Source: an uncultured virus (IMG/VR IMGVR_UViG_3300035188_001352)
Lineage: Duplodnaviria > Heunggongvirae > Uroviricota > Caudoviricetes
IMG/VR virus record: IMGVR_UViG_3300035188_001352
Location: 62,001 to 118,937 of that record
Length of the DNA: 56,937 bases
Strand: one strand, 5' to 3'
Below are positions 428 through 23,436 of the stretch, one piece after another (positions within the stretch are counted from its first letter, which is position 1; each line of letters begins with the position of its first letter). Made by a program: the position numbers and the translations under genes. Under the pieces are notes generated by a model, which saw only the letters and a program-made list of their open reading frames with translations, was not told the origin of the DNA and ran no database searches.

Positions 428-1219
428 ATGAAAAACTTTAAATATTCAACCAAATGTTCTTGTATTATATGTAATCAAGAAACTACTACGCAAAGTTTAA
501 ATAAACATTACGAAAGTCATTTAAAACCAATTATTACTAAGACTTGTCCTAAATGTAAATCTATTCATTCTAATCATGGAATCTTTTGTTCTAGAATTTG
601 CGCAAATTCTAGAACACCTTCAGAATTAACTAAACAAAAAACTGCAAATACTTTAAAAGAAATCTTTTCGGTTAATCCACCAATTAAAAAATATCCAGAG
701 TACACACCAATATCTTTTTGCACTAACTGTTCAAAACTTTTTATTGGATTGAAATCCACATGCTCCCAAGAATGTTTAACGGCAAGACTACAGTCAGCCG
801 GCAAAAAATCAGCTTCAGTTCAAATCAAACGCTCAAGAGATGAAATTACTCTATATGAGCTATGTAAATCTTATTTTTCTAATGTTGAACATAATCAACC
901 AATTTTTGAGGGTTGGGATGCTGACATTATTATTCATGATATCAAAACTGCTATTCTCTGGAATGGCCCATGGCATTATAAAGATTTAGGTTTTAACAAT
1001 CATTCACTCAAACAAGTTCAAAATAGGGATAAACTAAAAATAAATATCATCAACAAAATGGGATGGAAATCTTTAGTCTTTGAAGATCGTTATTATACTC
1101 CAAAACAAGCTTTTAGTTTTTTAATTTCTCAAATATCTCAAATATCTAAAGAAGCGGGTGCTGGATTCGAACACAGCGTCCACGAGGGTTATGAGCCCTG
1201 TAATCTACCACTGATATAA
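428..1219 (+). CDS. Putative free-standing homing endonuclease (Zn-finger N-terminus, Vsr/DUF559-like PD-(D/E)XK domain)
   Basis: Several CxxC motifs and FCSRIC; WDADIII...AILWNGPWHY...RDKLK; C-terminus overlaps tRNA-Met antisense. Confidence 0.7.
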   Translation: MKNFKYSTKCSCIICNQETTTQSLNKHYESHLKPIITKTCPKCKSIHSNHGIFCSRICANSRTPSELTKQKTANTLKEIFSVNPPIKKYPEYTPISFCTNCSKLFIGLKSTCSQECLTARLQSAGKKSASVQIKRSRDEITLYELCKSYFSNVEHNQPIFEGWDADIIIHDIKTAILWNGPWHYKDLGFNNHSLKQVQNRDKLKINIINKMGWKSLVFEDRYYTPKQAFSFLISQISQISKEAGAGFEHSVHEGYEPCNLPLI

Positions 1220-1225
1220 CCCGCA
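1152..1225 (-). tRNA. tRNA-Met(CAT), initiator-like
   Basis: Cloverleaf with CT-CAT-AA loop, GGG/CCC anticodon stem and 1:72 mismatch; no encoded CCA; bulges in T and anticodon stems. Confidence 0.8.
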
Positions 1226-10381: not shown

Positions 10382-11116
10382 CTAAAGTTGTTCGTATTTT
10401 TCACGAACGGTTTGCAAATGTTTTTCATCCATGACTTTACCGAAAGTATTCACAGCCAAGAAAGCTGCATACTTTTCCTTTTCAGATGGTTCTTCCAAAG
10501 TACCCATCGACACACCATAATCTTCAAAGTGGTATTTGTCACTTCTTGAAAGTTCCGAAAAGTAATAGCCTTTGTATTGAAAACGGTCTTCGTAAAACTC
10601 AATCAATGCCGTCAAACGTTGTTTGCCATCAATAACTTCATAACCTTTGTTATCTACTTCAAATGGAACTTTAGCAAATACGAACAGACCGATGGTGACA
10701 TTGTTGAAGATTGAATCAATCAACTTTTGTTTGTCTTCCAATGTCCATACGTATTCACGTTGGTATTCAGGAGTAAAATCAACACCCGCATAATCACCAA
10801 CAACCATTCGTAACAGACCTTCAATGTTGCGATTTGATTGATTCATTCGAAAACGAATCGGTTGTTTCAAGCTTGTTTTTGGTAAATCTTCACGAATCTT
10901 ATACAATTCGTGCCATGCAACTTGAGATTCTTGGGTATAAGGAACTTGTGTTCCATAGTTGTTTTTCATACCCGAAGAATAGACTACATACATTCCACCT
11001 TCAAGGGCTTTTCTAACTACTGAATGTGTATGATTACCAAACTCTACGTCTTCACCTTCTTCAAAAGAACGTGTTGGTTTGAAACCATCTCTTACCCGCC
11101 AGTCGAAGTCTTTCAT
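10382..11116 (-). CDS. DUF262 (ParB-like) domain protein
   Basis: PEYQREYVW, LIDSI, VIDGKQRLTAL, F-x-x-VN motifs. Confidence 0.85.
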   Translation of the reverse strand: MKDFDWRVRDGFKPTRSFEEGEDVEFGNHTHSVVRKALEGGMYVVYSSGMKNNYGTQVPYTQESQVAWHELYKIREDLPKTSLKQPIRFRMNQSNRNIEGLLRMVVGDYAGVDFTPEYQREYVWTLEDKQKLIDSIFNNVTIGLFVFAKVPFEVDNKGYEVIDGKQRLTALIEFYEDRFQYKGYYFSELSRSDKYHFEDYGVSMGTLEEPSEKEKYAAFLAVNTFGKVMDEKHLQTVREKYEQL

Positions 11117-15407: not shown

Positions 15408-15689
15408 TTACTCACCATGATATTGCCATAAGACTGCATTACAAACTGCATGAACTGCTCCAATAGTCATACCAGTATCATGAGCATGGTGTAGATGAAC
15501 TGGCCATTTGAAAAAGTTCGGTGGAAATAACGTTCTATCAATTCGCTTCCCAATCATTTCTTTAGAAGCTTTACCATCTAATGGTTGTCCACAATGACAA
15601 CACTTACCTTCCTGAAGACGAACATATTCTTCTCGAACTAACCTACGTTGAGCTGAAGATATCTTATCGTAATTGACTGGTAATTGCAT
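15408..15689 (-). CDS. Small HNH/endonuclease VII-like protein
   Basis: Q-x-G-x-CCHC...HLHHAHDTG...GAVHAVCN. Confidence 0.65.
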   Translation of the reverse strand: MQLPVNYDKISSAQRRLVREEYVRLQEGKCCHCGQPLDGKASKEMIGKRIDRTLFPPNFFKWPVHLHHAHDTGMTIGAVHAVCNAVLWQYHGE

Positions 15690-15709: not shown

Positions 15710-15783
15710 TGGTAGGACCAGAAAGAGTCGAACTTTCATTGACGGATTATCGGTCCGGCATTCTACCATTGAATTATGGTCCT
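15710..15783 (-). tRNA. tRNA-Ile(GAT)
   Basis: AGGACCA acceptor, CC-GAT-AA loop (C33), A73-CCA; 5' end overlaps the endonuclease stop. Confidence 0.9.
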
Positions 15784-16419
15784 AATATATTCTTCTGTTA
15801 ATTGTTCTTTCAATAAAATGAACAACTTTACATTATTTTGTTCAATTACTTTGGCTATTTTTTCTTCATCTTGTTTTGCTTTATAACTATTTTTTGGGTC
15901 TAACCAAATATCATATTCCGGTAAATAAAAATCGGCAAAGTAATTTCTGTTATCATATTTTAAAGCCTTAGGTCTCAACCACTTAATGTTCAGATTATTC
16001 AAAATTTCACTACATCTTAATTCATAACTACTCTGAAGTGTTGTTAGCTTTCCAAAACTATCAATAACTTTCGTTTTTTGGCTTCGCCCAGCATTTTCTC
16101 GATATCCACCGCCTTTAGCAGAATTTACTCTATGTTGTTCTGTATTATCTTTGTGGTATTTTTTACTGCAATAGCCATTAGGTTCATTGTTTTCATAATA
16201 CTTTTTTACGCCTAAACTATTTTCAAATACTCTTGAATCTGTTTCTTTTGTTAGACCTTTATTCCAAGCTTTTCTAATTCCATTTTTATATCCACTATTT
16301 GGATCAAAATCTATACCTCTAATCTTTTTTATTTTGACGCCATTACAACTTTTAATATGTTTTTTAAAATTATTATTAGTTATATCTTTACAACATTTTA
16401 CACAATAAGTAGTTTTCAT
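15763..16419 (-). CDS. Putative free-standing homing endonuclease (PD-(D/E)XK)
   Basis: CxxC...HxxxC Zn finger, AWNKGLTKETD-x-R, QSSYE...YFADFYLPEYDIWLDPKN. Confidence 0.7.
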   Translation of the reverse strand: MKTTYCVKCCKDITNNNFKKHIKSCNGVKIKKIRGIDFDPNSGYKNGIRKAWNKGLTKETDSRVFENSLGVKKYYENNEPNGYCSKKYHKDNTEQHRVNSAKGGGYRENAGRSQKTKVIDSFGKLTTLQSSYELRCSEILNNLNIKWLRPKALKYDNRNYFADFYLPEYDIWLDPKNSYKAKQDEEKIAKVIEQNNVKLFILLKEQLTEEYIRTIIQW

Positions 16420-16443
16420 AATAATCTCACAATCGAAAATTAT

Positions 16444-16451
16444 TATTTATA
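16444..16451 (-). promoter_or_regulatory. T4-type late promoter TATAAATA
   Basis: Exact match, 3 nt downstream of the truncated tRNA-Ile anticodon. Confidence 0.7.
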
Positions 16452-16454
16452 CAG

Positions 16455-16489
16455 ATCAGGTTCACGTTCTACCTTTAAACTAAGGAGCT
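16455..16489 (-). pseudogene. Orphan 5' half of tRNA-Ile(GAT), ending at the anticodon
   Basis: AGCTCCT-TA-GTTT-AAAGGTA-GAAC-G-TGAAC-CT-GAT followed by non-tRNA sequence. Confidence 0.8.
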
Positions 16490-20369: not shown

Positions 20370-20861
20370 TTACTTTTTCGACCTAAATCCTAAAGACCTA
20401 CTGTAAGATTGTAATATCATTATATCACATCTTGCTGCTTCTGTACACAAATACTTTGGGTCAGGATACACTCCAACTCGTCCTAAGTCCAACCTATCAG
20501 CATCCCAACATATCTGAGTGGTAATGTCTGCCAGAGTTGCTCCATGAGTGTGGAACATGCATGCATACCGTAAGATGCTCAGTTCAGTATCATCAAGACT
20601 AATGATACCTTTATCATTCAGTTCTTTAGCAAAATCAGCTGCTCGGTCTCCATGTCTATGATCGTGGCCATCATTCAATCGACAACTATCATGTAAGAAT
20701 GCAAACAGTTCAATGACCTTGACATTAGCTCCAGGATAGTGCGTTGCAAGTGTTAGACCATTCAACTTTACTCTTGACCAATGAGCAACTCCATGAATGC
20801 CATTCCAATCCAGTTGATACTTTTGACGAACTGTTTCAATGAGTTGCTTAGTGATGTTCAT
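20370..20861 (-). CDS. HD-domain phosphohydrolase
   Basis: HG-x-x-HW-x-RV, LHDSCR, DADRLDL. Confidence 0.85.
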   Translation of the reverse strand: MNITKQLIETVRQKYQLDWNGIHGVAHWSRVKLNGLTLATHYPGANVKVIELFAFLHDSCRLNDGHDHRHGDRAADFAKELNDKGIISLDDTELSILRYACMFHTHGATLADITTQICWDADRLDLGRVGVYPDPKYLCTEAARCDIMILQSYSRSLGFRSKK

Positions 20862-22977: not shown

Positions 22978-23117
22978 TGAAGTGAATGAATAGGATTCGA
23001 ACCTATGACATGCTGCTTGGATTTGGATAATCATTTTCAACGGTTCAACGTGAATTGAACAAAAACTAAAAACGCTATTTTGATGGCGGCTGCTCTACCA
23101 ACTGAGCTATCATTCAC
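22978..23117 (-). ncRNA. tRNA-like RNA whose anticodon loop is replaced by a Y-RNA-type stem (circularly permuted YrlA-like)
   Basis: 8-bp acceptor GTGAATGA/TCATTCAC, canonical D and T arms; insert TTTTT-GTTCAA-TTCACG-TTGAAC-CG-TTG-AAAATG-A-TTATC. Confidence 0.65.
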
Positions 23118-23164: not shown

Positions 23165-23436
23165 TGACTAGCGATTAGAACATACCTGTCTAACCACCAG
23201 TCATCAAGAACCTTTGTCTTACATCTTTTTGCAAATAACCCACATGTTTGACGATGAGTTTGAGTTATATTTGACCGACACTCTAACCACTGAGTTACTC
23301 CACCCCACTTGATACTGACGAGCTATTCAATACCAAGTGGAGGTGGAAATGGGATTCGAACCCACGACTTTCGGTTTATCATAATAGAATGATAAGATTG
23401 TGCCTATTTGCAATTGTTAAGATGCCTTCCTAGTCA
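23165..23436 (-). ncRNA. Large YrlA-like RNA (T arm precedes D arm)
   Basis: TTATC...GTGGG-TTCGAAT-CCCAT, closed acceptor-like stem TCCACC..CCACTTG/CAAGTGG..GGTGGA, then TA-ACTC-AGTGGTTA-GAGT; terminal TGACTAG/CTAGTCA. Confidence 0.65.

Follow-up and report, generated by a model that had tools for sequence, protein, structure and literature searches.

A probable homing-endonuclease cassette that carries its own spare tRNA-Ile in the tRNA region of an uncultured large phage

Why should a phage keep half of a tRNA gene directly upstream of a nuclease gene, and why should that nuclease gene end inside a second, complete tRNA gene with the same anticodon? The question is raised by a locus on the minus strand of the window, as we call the whole 56,937-nucleotide stretch analysed here, which forms part of a 118.9-kb IMG/VR record of an uncultured virus. 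The locus begins with the 5′ half of a tRNA-Ile(GAT) gene (16489-16455, minus strand; 35 nt, nt 1-36 in tRNA numbering), which by direct reading is truncated exactly after the anticodon and which we term the orphan. Exactly 3 nt later comes a TATAAATA box (16451-16444, minus strand), followed by a 5′ leader (16420..16443, minus strand) in which a weak A/U hairpin brings the start codon into pairing with bases next to the promoter, and then by an ORF of 218 aa (16419-15763, minus strand) whose product has a zinc knuckle at its N-terminus, a PD-(D/E)XK domain at its C-terminus and the motif WNKGLTKETD. The last six codons of this ORF and its stop are at the same time nt 1-21 of an intact, divergent tRNA-Ile(GAT) with an encoded CCA (15783-15710, minus strand; overlap 15763..15783), which is called by aragorn and scores 63.6 bits with the Rfam tRNA model (E 3.5e-13). 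The two tRNA-Ile sequences are far from identical: over the 5′ half the orphan agrees with its own linked tRNA at only 22 of 35 positions, and at position 33 the linked tRNA has C where the orphan has T, as seen both in the Rfam alignment and by direct reading. A preliminary description of this DNA had set out the same order of parts, from the half tRNA through the TATAAATA box 3 nt on to the ORF and the overlapping intact tRNA, and every anatomical statement in it held. A search of IMG/VR with an exact 31-mer of the orphan found the same cassette in one near-identical second record (L001), the sole other record with the window's stretch, and no second copy of the nuclease family was found in the 118.9-kb record.

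The identity of the orphan has to be settled before anything is built on it. Read directly, it consists of a 7-nt acceptor strand, U8, a 4-bp D stem enclosing a 7-nt loop with A14, GG and A21, and five anticodon-stem bases followed by C-T-G-A-T, where the tRNA register ends. General tools miss it: neither aragorn nor the Rfam tRNA model, also when run cut at the break, reports it, and a generic model of tRNA 5′ halves (R1) gives the window orphan 9.1 bits at an E-value of 7.5. A profile of such halves for nhmmer, which returned 207 matches against 595 called tRNAs, was dropped as insensitive. A further model (R2) was trained on 27 intact phage tRNA-Ile 5′ halves, with all orphans and the window sequence excluded, and its top match across both strands of the 56.9-kb window is the orphan, over its full length (24.9 bits, E 3.7e-4). 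We note also that an intact tRNA-Ile(GAT) in a metagenome contig (L122:3-74) is identical to the window orphan at 32 of 35 positions and throughout nt 1-24, that the three differences all lie in the anticodon stem, and that the 3′ strand of its acceptor stem matches the acceptor strand of the orphan. The L122 contig begins at this tRNA, and a 26-mer of the orphan has no match in the metagenome contigs.

The ORF product had been described as a PD-(D/E)XK endonuclease, and fold and motif agree that it is a member of that superfamily. In a profile search of the PDB, the best match to its C-terminal domain is T7 endonuclease I (1m0d, 1fzr, 2pfj), at an E-value of 6.9e-6 over some 80 residues (aa 125-205), an alignment that brings the acidic and lysine motifs into register. 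A confident AF2 model (pLDDT 90.4) gives VIA fold scores for the domain (aa ~110-218; 15766..16092, minus strand) of Z 9.5 with Bax1, 9.4 with I-Bth0305I (3r3p; rmsd 3.0 over 84 residues), 9.1 with Vsr, 8.3 with TnsA, 6.6 with Hjc and 5.5 with I-Ssp6803I (2ost), at a sequence identity of 12-14% to I-Bth0305I and I-Ssp6803I; Foldseek against the PDB finds nothing at E <= 1e-3, and its weak best match (E 8e-3) brings up the same proteins as VIA. In an alignment of 66 sequences, E133, D163 and K187 are invariant, position 174 is always D or E (D174-x-K176 in the window), and K176 is nearly invariant. So are C6, C9 and H21, three residues of the N-terminal knuckle (C-x2-C...H...C, aa 6-25; 16345..16404, minus strand), which draws weak zinc-finger matches in the PDB profile search. 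A GIY-YIG catalytic domain of the Seg type was considered and rejected, given that profile and fold both indicate PD-(D/E)XK and that neither Pfam nor PHROGs returns a GIY-YIG match. Existing family collections otherwise say little: PHROG 9019, labelled 'Holliday junction resolvase', matches the ORF at an E-value of 1.5e-6, and Pfam at E <= 1 offers DUF7418 alone (E 0.39), which places the ORF in no family. The WNKGLTKETD motif is one that we take to be NUMOD3-like; NUMOD3 itself is absent from the Pfam matches at E <= 1. The family is nonetheless large, with 355 relatives at E <= 1e-3, and each of the 120 relatives listed is named 'hypothetical protein' and nothing more. A distant member with the same layout, annotated just as 'endonuclease', occurs in the cultured coliphage PhaxI and its Kuttervirus relatives, where it is fused to a tRNA-Met and preceded by a tRNA stub.

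The TATAAATA box between orphan and ORF presumably matches the T4 late promoter consensus, and we read it as a T4-type late promoter of the endonuclease gene, which would place expression late in infection. The window holds 12 TATAAATA sites where 5.68 are expected, a number reached in 0 of 100 shuffles; by our reading an ORF on the same strand starts 24-90 nt downstream of at least 8 of the 12, and the box recurs after the orphan in sister cassettes. The leader hairpin of the window is not significant (z -1.05; 30 of 200 shuffles fold as well), but its counterparts in L013 (z -4.55, 0/200) and L005 (z -2.9, 1/200) are strong.

The arrangement recurs in other genomes. The nucleases linked to tRNA-Ile form a single clade of seven rows with full support (100/100), and clades of the family follow single tRNA species. 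In all nine unique close relatives or remnants the ORF ends 14-24 nt inside a tRNA-Ile-like gene, and all seven unique full-length close relatives have a tRNA half upstream in the same position, ending 31-41 nt 5′ of the ATG. R1 finds the orphans of L005, L008, L012, L013 and L014 (E 0.0046-0.6) in a scan of 47 of the 65 unique loci (L004, L019 and L065-L082 fell outside it); that of L011 is decayed and was seen by eye only. R2 also scores the L008, L012 and L013 orphans highly, but circularly so, because its training set had been retrieved with a pattern made from those very orphans. Adjacency to tRNA genes extends to the family at large: a same-strand tRNA adjoins 26 of 53 unique members as compared with 27 of 165 control ORFs (p 5e-6). 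The earlier proposal of a recurring class of element is thus borne out by the overlaps, the upstream halves and the tRNA adjacency alike. The layout has its variants. Many distant members lack an orphan and lie between two intact tRNAs, and the anticodons of orphan and linked tRNA differ in L014 (GGG against an ATC loop) and in L035 (GAT against GAA). A second cassette in the window, at 278-1225, had been said to have the same layout as this one; from a partial look it does form a mirror image, but its ORF lies on the strand opposite to its tRNAs.

A homing cassette should also leave uninterrupted alleles behind. A pattern derived from the L008, L012 and L013 orphans retrieves 32 loci from IMG/VR, of which five consist of an orphan followed by the nuclease and 27 continue as an intact tRNA-Ile (22 of these called by aragorn), and interrupted and uninterrupted alleles diverge exactly at nt 36|37. 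The intact tRNA-Ile of L091 is identical to the L008 orphan at 35 of 35 positions, that of L095 to the L013 orphan at 34 of 35, and one empty site is syntenic: L112 reads Val-Ile-Phe where L088 reads Val-[orphan-nuclease-Ile]-Phe. The sister cassettes hence display the presence/absence polymorphism that is typical of free-standing homing genes. The prediction that empty alleles would be found in relatives came true for these cassettes and nearly so for the window orphan, whose nearest uninterrupted form is the 32/35 match in L122. Lateral movement and decay, the other marks of a homing cycle, are likewise seen among the relatives. The arrays of L008 and L012 are otherwise unrelated but have in common a single block, 95% identical, that starts at nt 1 of the orphan and stops 3 nt beyond the linked tRNA; L020 and L041 retain only C-terminal remnants of the ORF fused to the tRNA, and L028 has a truncated ORF.

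The window phage itself yielded no syntenic cassette-free relative in searches with its flanking proteins or by megablast. When 3.5 kb was compared with phage records by megablast, nothing matched; the flanking 84-aa protein finds the same contig only, the 286-aa protein a single relative (36%) without tRNAs, and the 93-aa and 150-aa proteins scattered, non-syntenic relatives. The whole stretch is present in 18 lake or freshwater runs, with the cassette in every contig that covers the locus, and the contigs of four runs show no joints, variants or loose ends. Short contigs from RNA libraries (X19, X20) fall within the ORF, which would not by itself amount to transcription, and stretches that lack cover carry no weight.

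We propose that the locus is a free-standing homing-endonuclease cassette, specialised on the tRNA-Ile(GAT) gene of large T4-like phages, that replaces the resident copy of this gene, presumably by cutting it, and we put the probability of this reading at roughly three in four. The cassette would comprise the late promoter TATAAATA, the nuclease gene and a complete tRNA-Ile gene that also encodes the C-terminus and stop of the enzyme. In a mixed infection, the enzyme would cut the tRNA-Ile gene of a cassette-less phage at or near the anticodon loop, and the break would be repaired with the cassette-bearing genome as template. Of its own gene the recipient would retain nt 1-36, the 5′ half, which becomes the orphan and may double as the left homology arm, and would exchange its 3′ half for the promoter, the nuclease gene and the donor's full tRNA-Ile. 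The right-hand homology arm would be tiny, since target and linked tRNA share few bases at the 3′ end, and the junction at 36|37 may be where recombination ended instead of where the enzyme cut. Because the donor tRNA differs in the D stem and the anticodon stem, the new locus would presumably be uncuttable, and the phage's tRNA function would be preserved by the donor tRNA. The overlap of ORF and tRNA would keep recombination from parting the nuclease from the resistant tRNA; moreover, maturation of the tRNA by RNase P would clip the stop codon from the mRNA, which may hold enzyme levels low. The suggestion that C33 of the linked tRNA is itself an immunity change fared less well. The C33/T33 difference is there, but T33 is what the sister cassettes carry, and among 462 unique phage tRNAs C33 is found in 17, so that a link to immunity is unsupported.

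Other interpretations of the locus have to be weighed against this one. The orphan might be no scar at all, but a standing part of the mobile element, either a left homology arm or a regulatory piece, that is inherited together with the nuclease. The 95% block of L008 and L012 begins at nt 1 of the orphan, which indicates that the orphan was moved or converted along with the nuclease, and a paired D stem is kept in the orphans despite sequence change (GCTC/GAGC in the sisters, GTTT/GAAC in the window), both of which agree with such a role. On the other hand, the orphans of L008, L013 and the window each have the near-identical intact counterpart described above (L091, L095 and L122), while the nuclease proteins are just 60-73% identical, a combination easier to reconcile with resident alleles having been captured again and again than with a single ancestral orphan from which all descend, and the decay of the L011 orphan is what would be expected of unselected sequence. 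We consider a standing orphan unlikely, if still worth serious thought. More doubtful is the notion that the nuclease no longer homes, or never did, and instead serves the phage, for instance through breaks that promote recombination or amplification of the tRNA array, as is reported for SegB, with the cassette fixed. The invariable presence of the cassette in the freshwater contigs and the abundant tRNA debris in the tRNA region of the window would suit this notion, as would the finding that tRNA gene amplification driven by SegB aids immune escape (PMC13096335). Rare cassette-free variants are invisible in contigs, however, and the polymorphism, transfer and decayed copies at the sister loci are what a selfish homing gene usually passes through in its life cycle, which leaves a fixed, phage-serving nuclease improbable.

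It may finally be asked whether the half tRNA is a half tRNA at all, or merely a chance resemblance, or one part of a split or intron-containing tRNA with a distant partner. The silence of aragorn and Rfam and the poor score of the generic model would accord with such an origin, and the anticodon loop of another tRNA in the window does contain an insert of 68 nt. Set against this are the rank of the orphan in the Ile-specific search and its near-identity to an intact tRNA-Ile, together with the occurrence of orphans at the same position in seven of seven unique sister cassettes. A partner is likewise missing from the record: none of the five AGGAGCT sites in its 118.9 kb adjoins a T arm and CCA, and the downstream tRNA has a complete acceptor stem of its own. 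A group I intron in the anticodon loop was rejected, there being no 3′ partner in the record and no intron family detected by Rfam between orphan and tRNA. Chance or a split gene is accordingly an explanation to which we attach hardly any probability.

A homing cassette of this kind would offer a concrete and testable mechanism by which phage tRNA clusters turn over rapidly, acquire duplicates and accumulate debris, and may help to explain how such clusters are rewritten. It would also account for orphan tRNA halves, which annotation pipelines ignore or miscall. The break-and-bring-a-spare design recurs in many phages, and the large unnamed family of homing-type nucleases behind it, whose clades follow single tRNA species, offers kindred enzymes that nature has directed at different long DNA targets; the member in PhaxI brings the idea within reach of the bench. 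The overlap of ORF and tRNA suggests a general route by which tRNA maturation may throttle a toxic nuclease. A bolder extension, which we think rather unlikely, is that the tRNA arrays of large phages are built and constantly overwritten by isoacceptor-specific homing cassettes, comprising lineages of this one family for Ile, Thr, Phe, Leu, Met, Lys and Gly as well as other nuclease families, and that the tRNAs so spread, with their altered anticodon stems and, in the present cassette, C33, are selected for resistance both to their own nuclease and to host anticodon nucleases. Were this true, the selfish element would double as a vehicle distributing counter-defence tRNA alleles among phages.

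Several known systems resemble parts of the cassette. The homing endonucleases I-Bth0305I and I-Ssp6803I have restriction-enzyme-like folds and are encoded in introns or inteins, and I-Bth0305I is reportedly modular too, its N-terminal region binding DNA and its C-terminal one carrying the nuclease. In contrast, the cassette enzyme is free-standing and fused to a tRNA. EDxHD homing endonucleases, the type of I-Bth0305I, have a Vsr-like active site built on an E-D-x-H-D residue set; the cassette family keeps the classical E...D...(D/E)xK with its lysine, and its fold match to I-Bth0305I (Z 9.4) comes at 14% identity. T7 endonuclease I (gene 3), the best profile match, belongs to a family that acts as a domain-swapped dimer on four-way junctions. 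It is a structure-specific Holliday junction resolvase that, unlike the cassette enzyme, has neither a zinc knuckle nor a sequence-reading N-terminal half and is unlinked to tRNA genes. Integrase-borne islands and prophages that insert in tRNA genes carry a copy of the 3′ part with which the gene is made whole again, and they share with the cassette a tRNA target, a carried replacement for the displaced part and a partial duplicate left behind. They rely, though, on a site-specific recombinase and on identical short att repeats of the 3′ part, while the cassette has no integrase, brings a divergent whole tRNA and leaves a 5′-half remnant.

We found no description of the orphan-half, nuclease and spare-tRNA layout in phages, in a literature search of the main texts of openly available papers. 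The nearest phage precedent is SegB of T4 and T6, which is a free-standing nuclease gene in a phage tRNA array whose product cuts the tRNA genes of related phages and which is inherited preferentially together with flanking tRNA genes (PMC2330249; PMC13096335). As in the cassette, a tRNA gene follows so closely that the T4 segB ORF runs up to its 5′ end, and maturation of tRNA-Arg removes the stop codon of segB (PMC2330249). The differences are nonetheless considerable. SegB is a GIY-YIG and the cassette enzyme a PD-(D/E)XK nuclease; SegB recognises the T-psi-C motif, which many tRNAs share, and cleaves close to the 3′ ends of those tRNAs, and the relevant passages of the two papers describe neither an orphan half-gene nor a dedicated replacement tRNA for it (PMC2330249; PMC13096335). 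The cassette clade, by comparison, tracks one isoacceptor, with its junction after the anticodon.

The logic of the cassette is perhaps closest to that of the mORFs of fungal mitochondria, which create gene hybrids in Allomyces (atp6) and Glomus (atp6, atp9, cox2 and nad3; PMC3630166). There too an endonuclease gene, in that case LAGLIDADG or GIY-YIG, brings along a foreign version of whatever part of the target it displaces, and the native part is left as a non-functional duplicate that is closer to the relatives than the import is (PMC3630166). The mORFs target protein genes, replacing the C-terminal part and leaving the remnant downstream, whereas the cassette supplies a whole tRNA gene, leaves a 5′-half remnant upstream and has an ORF that overlaps the replacement gene. 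The relationship between remnant and import is nevertheless the same: the linked tRNA is intact, and the orphans agree with intact alleles from elsewhere at 32/35 to 35/35 positions, as against 22/35 for the window orphan and the tRNA to which it is linked.

The cassette lies on the minus strand and opens with an orphan tRNA 5' half of 35 nt (16489-16455), which has all the features typical of such a half and, read directly, ends in the bases C-T-G-A-T. A TATAAATA box (16451-16444) follows three bases past the orphan and leads, after 24 nt, into the 218-codon endonuclease ORF (16419-15763), the final six codons and stop of which are nucleotides 1-21 of the linked tRNA-Ile(GAT) (15783-15710), complete with an encoded CCA (aragorn; Rfam 63.6 bits, E 3.5e-13). 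The same arrangement is present in another IMG/VR record that is nearly identical. The window is the right-hand part (57 kb) of a virus record 118.9 kb long (~35% complete by CheckV), in which all 20 tRNA genes are on the minus strand and the nuclease family has one copy only. The whole stretch was present in 18 lake or freshwater runs; in the contigs of four runs, no variant form of the cassette was found. Directly downstream of the tRNA-Ile, a 93-aa gene (15408-15689, minus strand) has a weak endonuclease VII-like match; since its relatives (53-60% identical) are scattered across unrelated Vibrio, Agrobacterium, Rhizobium, Pseudomonas and other phages, the gene may be mobile in its own right.

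The orphan is not called by aragorn, nor hit by the Rfam tRNA model even when the search stretch ends at the break. A generic 5'-half model (R1) built from 110 phage tRNAs gives it 9.1 bits (E 7.5); this model is weak, the 5' half of the intact tRNA-Ile itself reaching just 11.7 bits. For a tRNA-Ile-specific model (R2), 27 intact phage tRNA-Ile(GAT) genes on other contigs supplied their 5' halves as training set, which included neither orphans nor window sequence. Over both strands of the whole window, R2 returned the orphan at full length as its top match (24.9 bits, E 3.7e-4), followed by the intact tRNA-Ile (18.0 bits). A degenerate 24-mer from the orphan's acceptor strand and D arm matched three metagenome contigs, two of them (L120, L121) with intact tRNA-Ile genes that have the orphan's acceptor stem. 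The third, L122, carries an uninterrupted tRNA-Ile(GAT) whose 5' half is identical to the orphan at 32 of 35 positions (nucleotides 1-24 throughout, with mismatches at 25, 26 and 29) and whose 3' end holds the complementary acceptor strand. With the adjoining linked tRNA-Ile the orphan shares only 22 of 35 positions, and a search for its 3' partner across the 118.9-kb record found none.

The ORF had been described as a PD-(D/E)XK endonuclease, and its conserved residues, its profile match to T7 endonuclease I and its fold matches show this to be right. It has no Pfam match and a weak match to 'Holliday junction resolvase' in PHROGs (E 1.5e-6, aa 121-205); 355 relatives were found in the protein collection at E <= 1e-3, and none of the 120 listed carries a Pfam domain or a name past 'hypothetical protein'. 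In an alignment of 66 sequences, N53, E133, D163, F164 and K187 are invariant, and C6, C9 and H21 (a zinc knuckle), W52/G55 (part of a WNKGLTKETD motif) and K176 nearly so; position 174 being D or E, the conserved E133, D163, D/E174 and K176 make up the classical E...D...(D/E)xK set. The profile of this alignment matches T7 endonuclease I (E 6.9e-6). The AlphaFold model (mean pLDDT 90.4) has weak Foldseek matches (best E 8e-3), all to restriction-fold nucleases, and an independent structure aligner places aa ~110-218 with Bax1 (Z 9.5), the homing endonuclease I-Bth0305I (Z 9.4, rmsd 3.0 over 84 residues), Vsr (Z 9.1), TnsA (Z 8.3), Hjc (Z 6.6) and I-Ssp6803I (Z 5.5).

The association of this nuclease with tRNA genes is recurrent; the preliminary description had suggested a recurring class of tRNA-replacing mobile element. 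A scan of IMG/VR with the 218-aa protein gave 79 loci, to which the window was added as an 80th row; removal of duplicates left 65 unique loci, in 53 of which the match extends to the C-terminal part. Among these 53, 19 family members have their stop inside a same-strand tRNA and 7 end 0-10 nt before one (26 in total, 49%), against 12 and 15 (27, or 16%) of the 165 other ORFs of at least 100 aa at the same loci (Fisher's test, p 5e-6). At every one of the nine unique loci with at least 46% identity (L004, L005, L008, L011, L012, L013, L014, L020 and L041), the overlap is with a tRNA-Ile-like gene and spans 14-24 nt; more remote members precede tRNAs for Thr, Phe, Leu, Met, Lys, Gly, Glu, Pro or Ser. 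A maximum-likelihood tree was built from 48 unique full-length proteins, leaving out duplicates, matches short of the C-terminus, rows without an ATG start or under 150 aa and the window (identical to L004). Its Ile-linked enzymes form a single clade (7 rows, 100/100 support), and the Gly-linked and Phe-linked enzymes cluster as well. The tRNA labels change 15 times on this tree against 22.2 in shuffles (0/200 as low), which shows clustering and not co-evolution, because kin share labels.

Orphan halves recur as well. In all seven unique full-length cassettes of the Ile clade, a tRNA 5' half ends 31-41 nt upstream of the ATG and is then followed by a TATAAATA-like box. The orphan shared by the window and L004 scores 24.9 bits with R2 (E 3.7e-4) and that of L014 23.6 bits with R1; the L011 orphan, decayed in look, was seen by eye only. 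The orphans of L008, L012 and L013 score 15.3, 14.6 and 15.7 bits with R1, and 52.5, 47.4 and 55 bits with R2, the latter values being circular because a pattern based on these very orphans had served to collect the R2 training set. At L005 (2881-2953), two different orphan halves stand in tandem ahead of the nuclease gene (R1 20.0 and 16.1 bits; R2 29.6 bits, E 2e-5), as if cassettes were nested. Orphan and linked tRNA agree in anticodon (GAT/GAT) in six of the seven; the exception, L014, has GGG in the orphan and the loop TTATCAA in the linked tRNA. This tRNA (~3563-3636 in L014-L018), called 'Asp(ATC)' by aragorn because of that loop, is clear kin of the tRNA-Ile of L011; we note that TTATCAA is the reverse complement of TTGATAA. 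The orphan scan covered 47 of the 65 unique loci, and 150 of 152 R1 matches lay on the same strand as the tRNAs, which implies that spurious matches are rare at the thresholds used. Among distant loci, an orphan stands directly upstream in L022 (27.4 bits, E 6e-4), L035 (21.6), L024 (18.0), L057 (16.5) and L030 (12.9), and ~135 nt upstream in L042 (28.5 bits); at many others scanned there was none, the nuclease gene merely lying between two intact tRNAs. L035 pairs an Ile-type orphan with a Phe-linked enzyme that matches in its N-terminal half only, which suggests a chimera.

A homing cassette should have empty alleles, and for the sister cassettes these were found. A degenerate 29-mer from the L008, L012 and L013 orphans, run against IMG/VR, matched 32 loci: 5 contigs with orphan plus nuclease, and 27 at which the match continues into an intact tRNA-Ile(GAT) (22 called by aragorn, five intact by eye). 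For the window's own orphan, the matching intact allele is that of L122, at 32/35. Among the 32 loci, interrupted and uninterrupted genes diverge exactly past nucleotide 36, and the 5' halves of two intact alleles, L091 and L095, are identical to the L008 and L013 orphans at 35/35 and 34/35 positions, respectively. The gene order tRNA-Val, intact tRNA-Ile, tRNA-Phe in L112 becomes tRNA-Val, [orphan-nuclease-tRNA-Ile], tRNA-Phe in L088, the tRNA-Val regions being 81% identical; from this comparison, the cassette would have replaced the 3' half of the resident tRNA-Ile and brought its own copy. L008 and L012 share a block, 95% identical, from the orphan's first base to 3 nt beyond the linked tRNA, with tRNA-Val and tRNA-Phe as neighbours in one and tRNA-Lys and non-tRNA sequence in the other. 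The orphan may be a fresh scar in every case or may at times travel along with its cassette. Right-hand homology between the cassette and new arrays is almost nil. L020 is related to L011 (flanks 75-80% identical) and has lost all of the ORF except its C-terminal third, which stands immediately past the upstream tRNA and is fused to the linked tRNA (93% identity); L041 retains a remnant of 56 codons. Taken together, invasion, spread and decay form the familiar cycle of a homing gene; the original observation is confirmed, and its interpretation is supported in its main lines. The proposal that C33 in the intact tRNA-Ile copy, where the orphan has T33, is an immunity change is unsupported, given T33 in the sister cassettes and C33 in 17 of 462 unique phage tRNAs. 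Separately, L085-L116 represent a widespread phage tRNA-Ile(GAT) family with an odd T loop, GGAGCGTTACC / GGATCGTTACC versus the usual GTTCGAATC type.

Other features of the window touch tRNA genes. At 278-1225, where the same layout had been claimed, there are a partial tRNA (a 3' end with T arm plus CCA, about 330->275, minus strand), a TATAAATA box (335-342) and a tRNA at the C-terminal end of a 263-aa ORF (428-1219, plus strand), but as a mirror image, with the ORF on the strand opposite the tRNAs. The C-terminal 68 nt of the ORF overlap this tRNA, a tRNA(CAU) (1152-1225, minus strand; Rfam 36.8 bits; missed by aragorn), in antisense. This ORF has no match in Pfam, PHROG or PDB; its N-terminal zinc knuckle resembles that of the 218-aa nuclease family (hhalign E 9e-4, 24 columns). 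On the minus strand, a tRNA at 22982-23116 (Rfam 45.3 bits, E 2e-8; uncalled by aragorn) has intact acceptor, D and T arms and a 68-nt insert in its anticodon loop, possibly a small intron or else what a deleted cassette left behind. At 23276-23373, also on the minus strand, a tRNA 3' part consisting of T arm, acceptor and CCA precedes a 5' half (23269-23304, R1 16.3 bits) by ~38 nt. The two together give a YrlA-like (Y RNA-like) match below threshold (E 0.0052) and represent either further debris of tRNA genes or a tRNA-like element in permuted form. Two further minus-strand genes stop just before same-strand tRNAs: a 244-aa GmrSD_N/DUF262 protein (10382-11116, E 5.7e-20), 6 nt before tRNA-Asp, and a 163-aa protein of unknown family (20370-20861), 4 nt before tRNA-Leu(TAG).

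As to expression, TATAAATA, which is identical to the T4 late-promoter consensus, is over-represented in the window (12 sites versus 5.7 expected; 0/100 shuffles reach 12), and by our own reading of the site and ORF lists at least 8 of these sites precede the start of a same-strand ORF by 24-90 nt. A gp23-type capsid domain encoded in the window is consistent with a T4-like phage. Two small RNA libraries yielded short contigs within the ORF, which are no proof of transcription. The promoter region and the start codon are paired in a strong hairpin at L013 (z -4.55) and at L005 (z -2.9); the corresponding A/U hairpin of the window falls short of significance (z -1.05). Such pairing has been described in T4 intron endonucleases and is also discussed in the case of SegB, the mRNA of which is proposed to be cut between last codon and stop by maturation of the downstream tRNA (sections of PMC2330249). 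By analogy, the window's cassette may be under hairpin-type control as in the T4 intron endonucleases, and its 21-nt ORF/tRNA overlap may be a stronger version of the segB-type clipping.

The literature searched yielded no account of a half-tRNA/nuclease/spare-tRNA layout in phages. The cultured Escherichia phage PhaxI (NC_019452, 135440-136208) has the same design in a distant family member, annotated 'endonuclease', the CDS of which overlaps tRNA-Met by 10 nt; a tRNA stub lies upstream (R1 16.7 bits, E 0.012), and the ATG is adjoined by an 11-bp inverted repeat; the relevant passages of a paper on Vi01-like phages list tRNAs and putative homing endonucleases and do not describe the layout (PMC3220722). 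Stenotrophomonas phage Bhz51 carries a homologue, without any annotation, between tRNA-Ile and tRNA-His. The nearest functional precedent is T4 SegB, a free-standing nuclease encoded within a tRNA array. It cuts tRNA genes, and its ORF, too, ends at a tRNA; SegB, however, is a GIY-YIG enzyme that recognises the common T-psi-C motif, and the sections on it describe no dedicated spare tRNA or orphan half (PMC2330249; PMC13096335). The same logic, in which a replacement is brought and the native part is left as a remnant, is that of the mORFs of fungal mitochondria, as portrayed in parts of PMC3630166.
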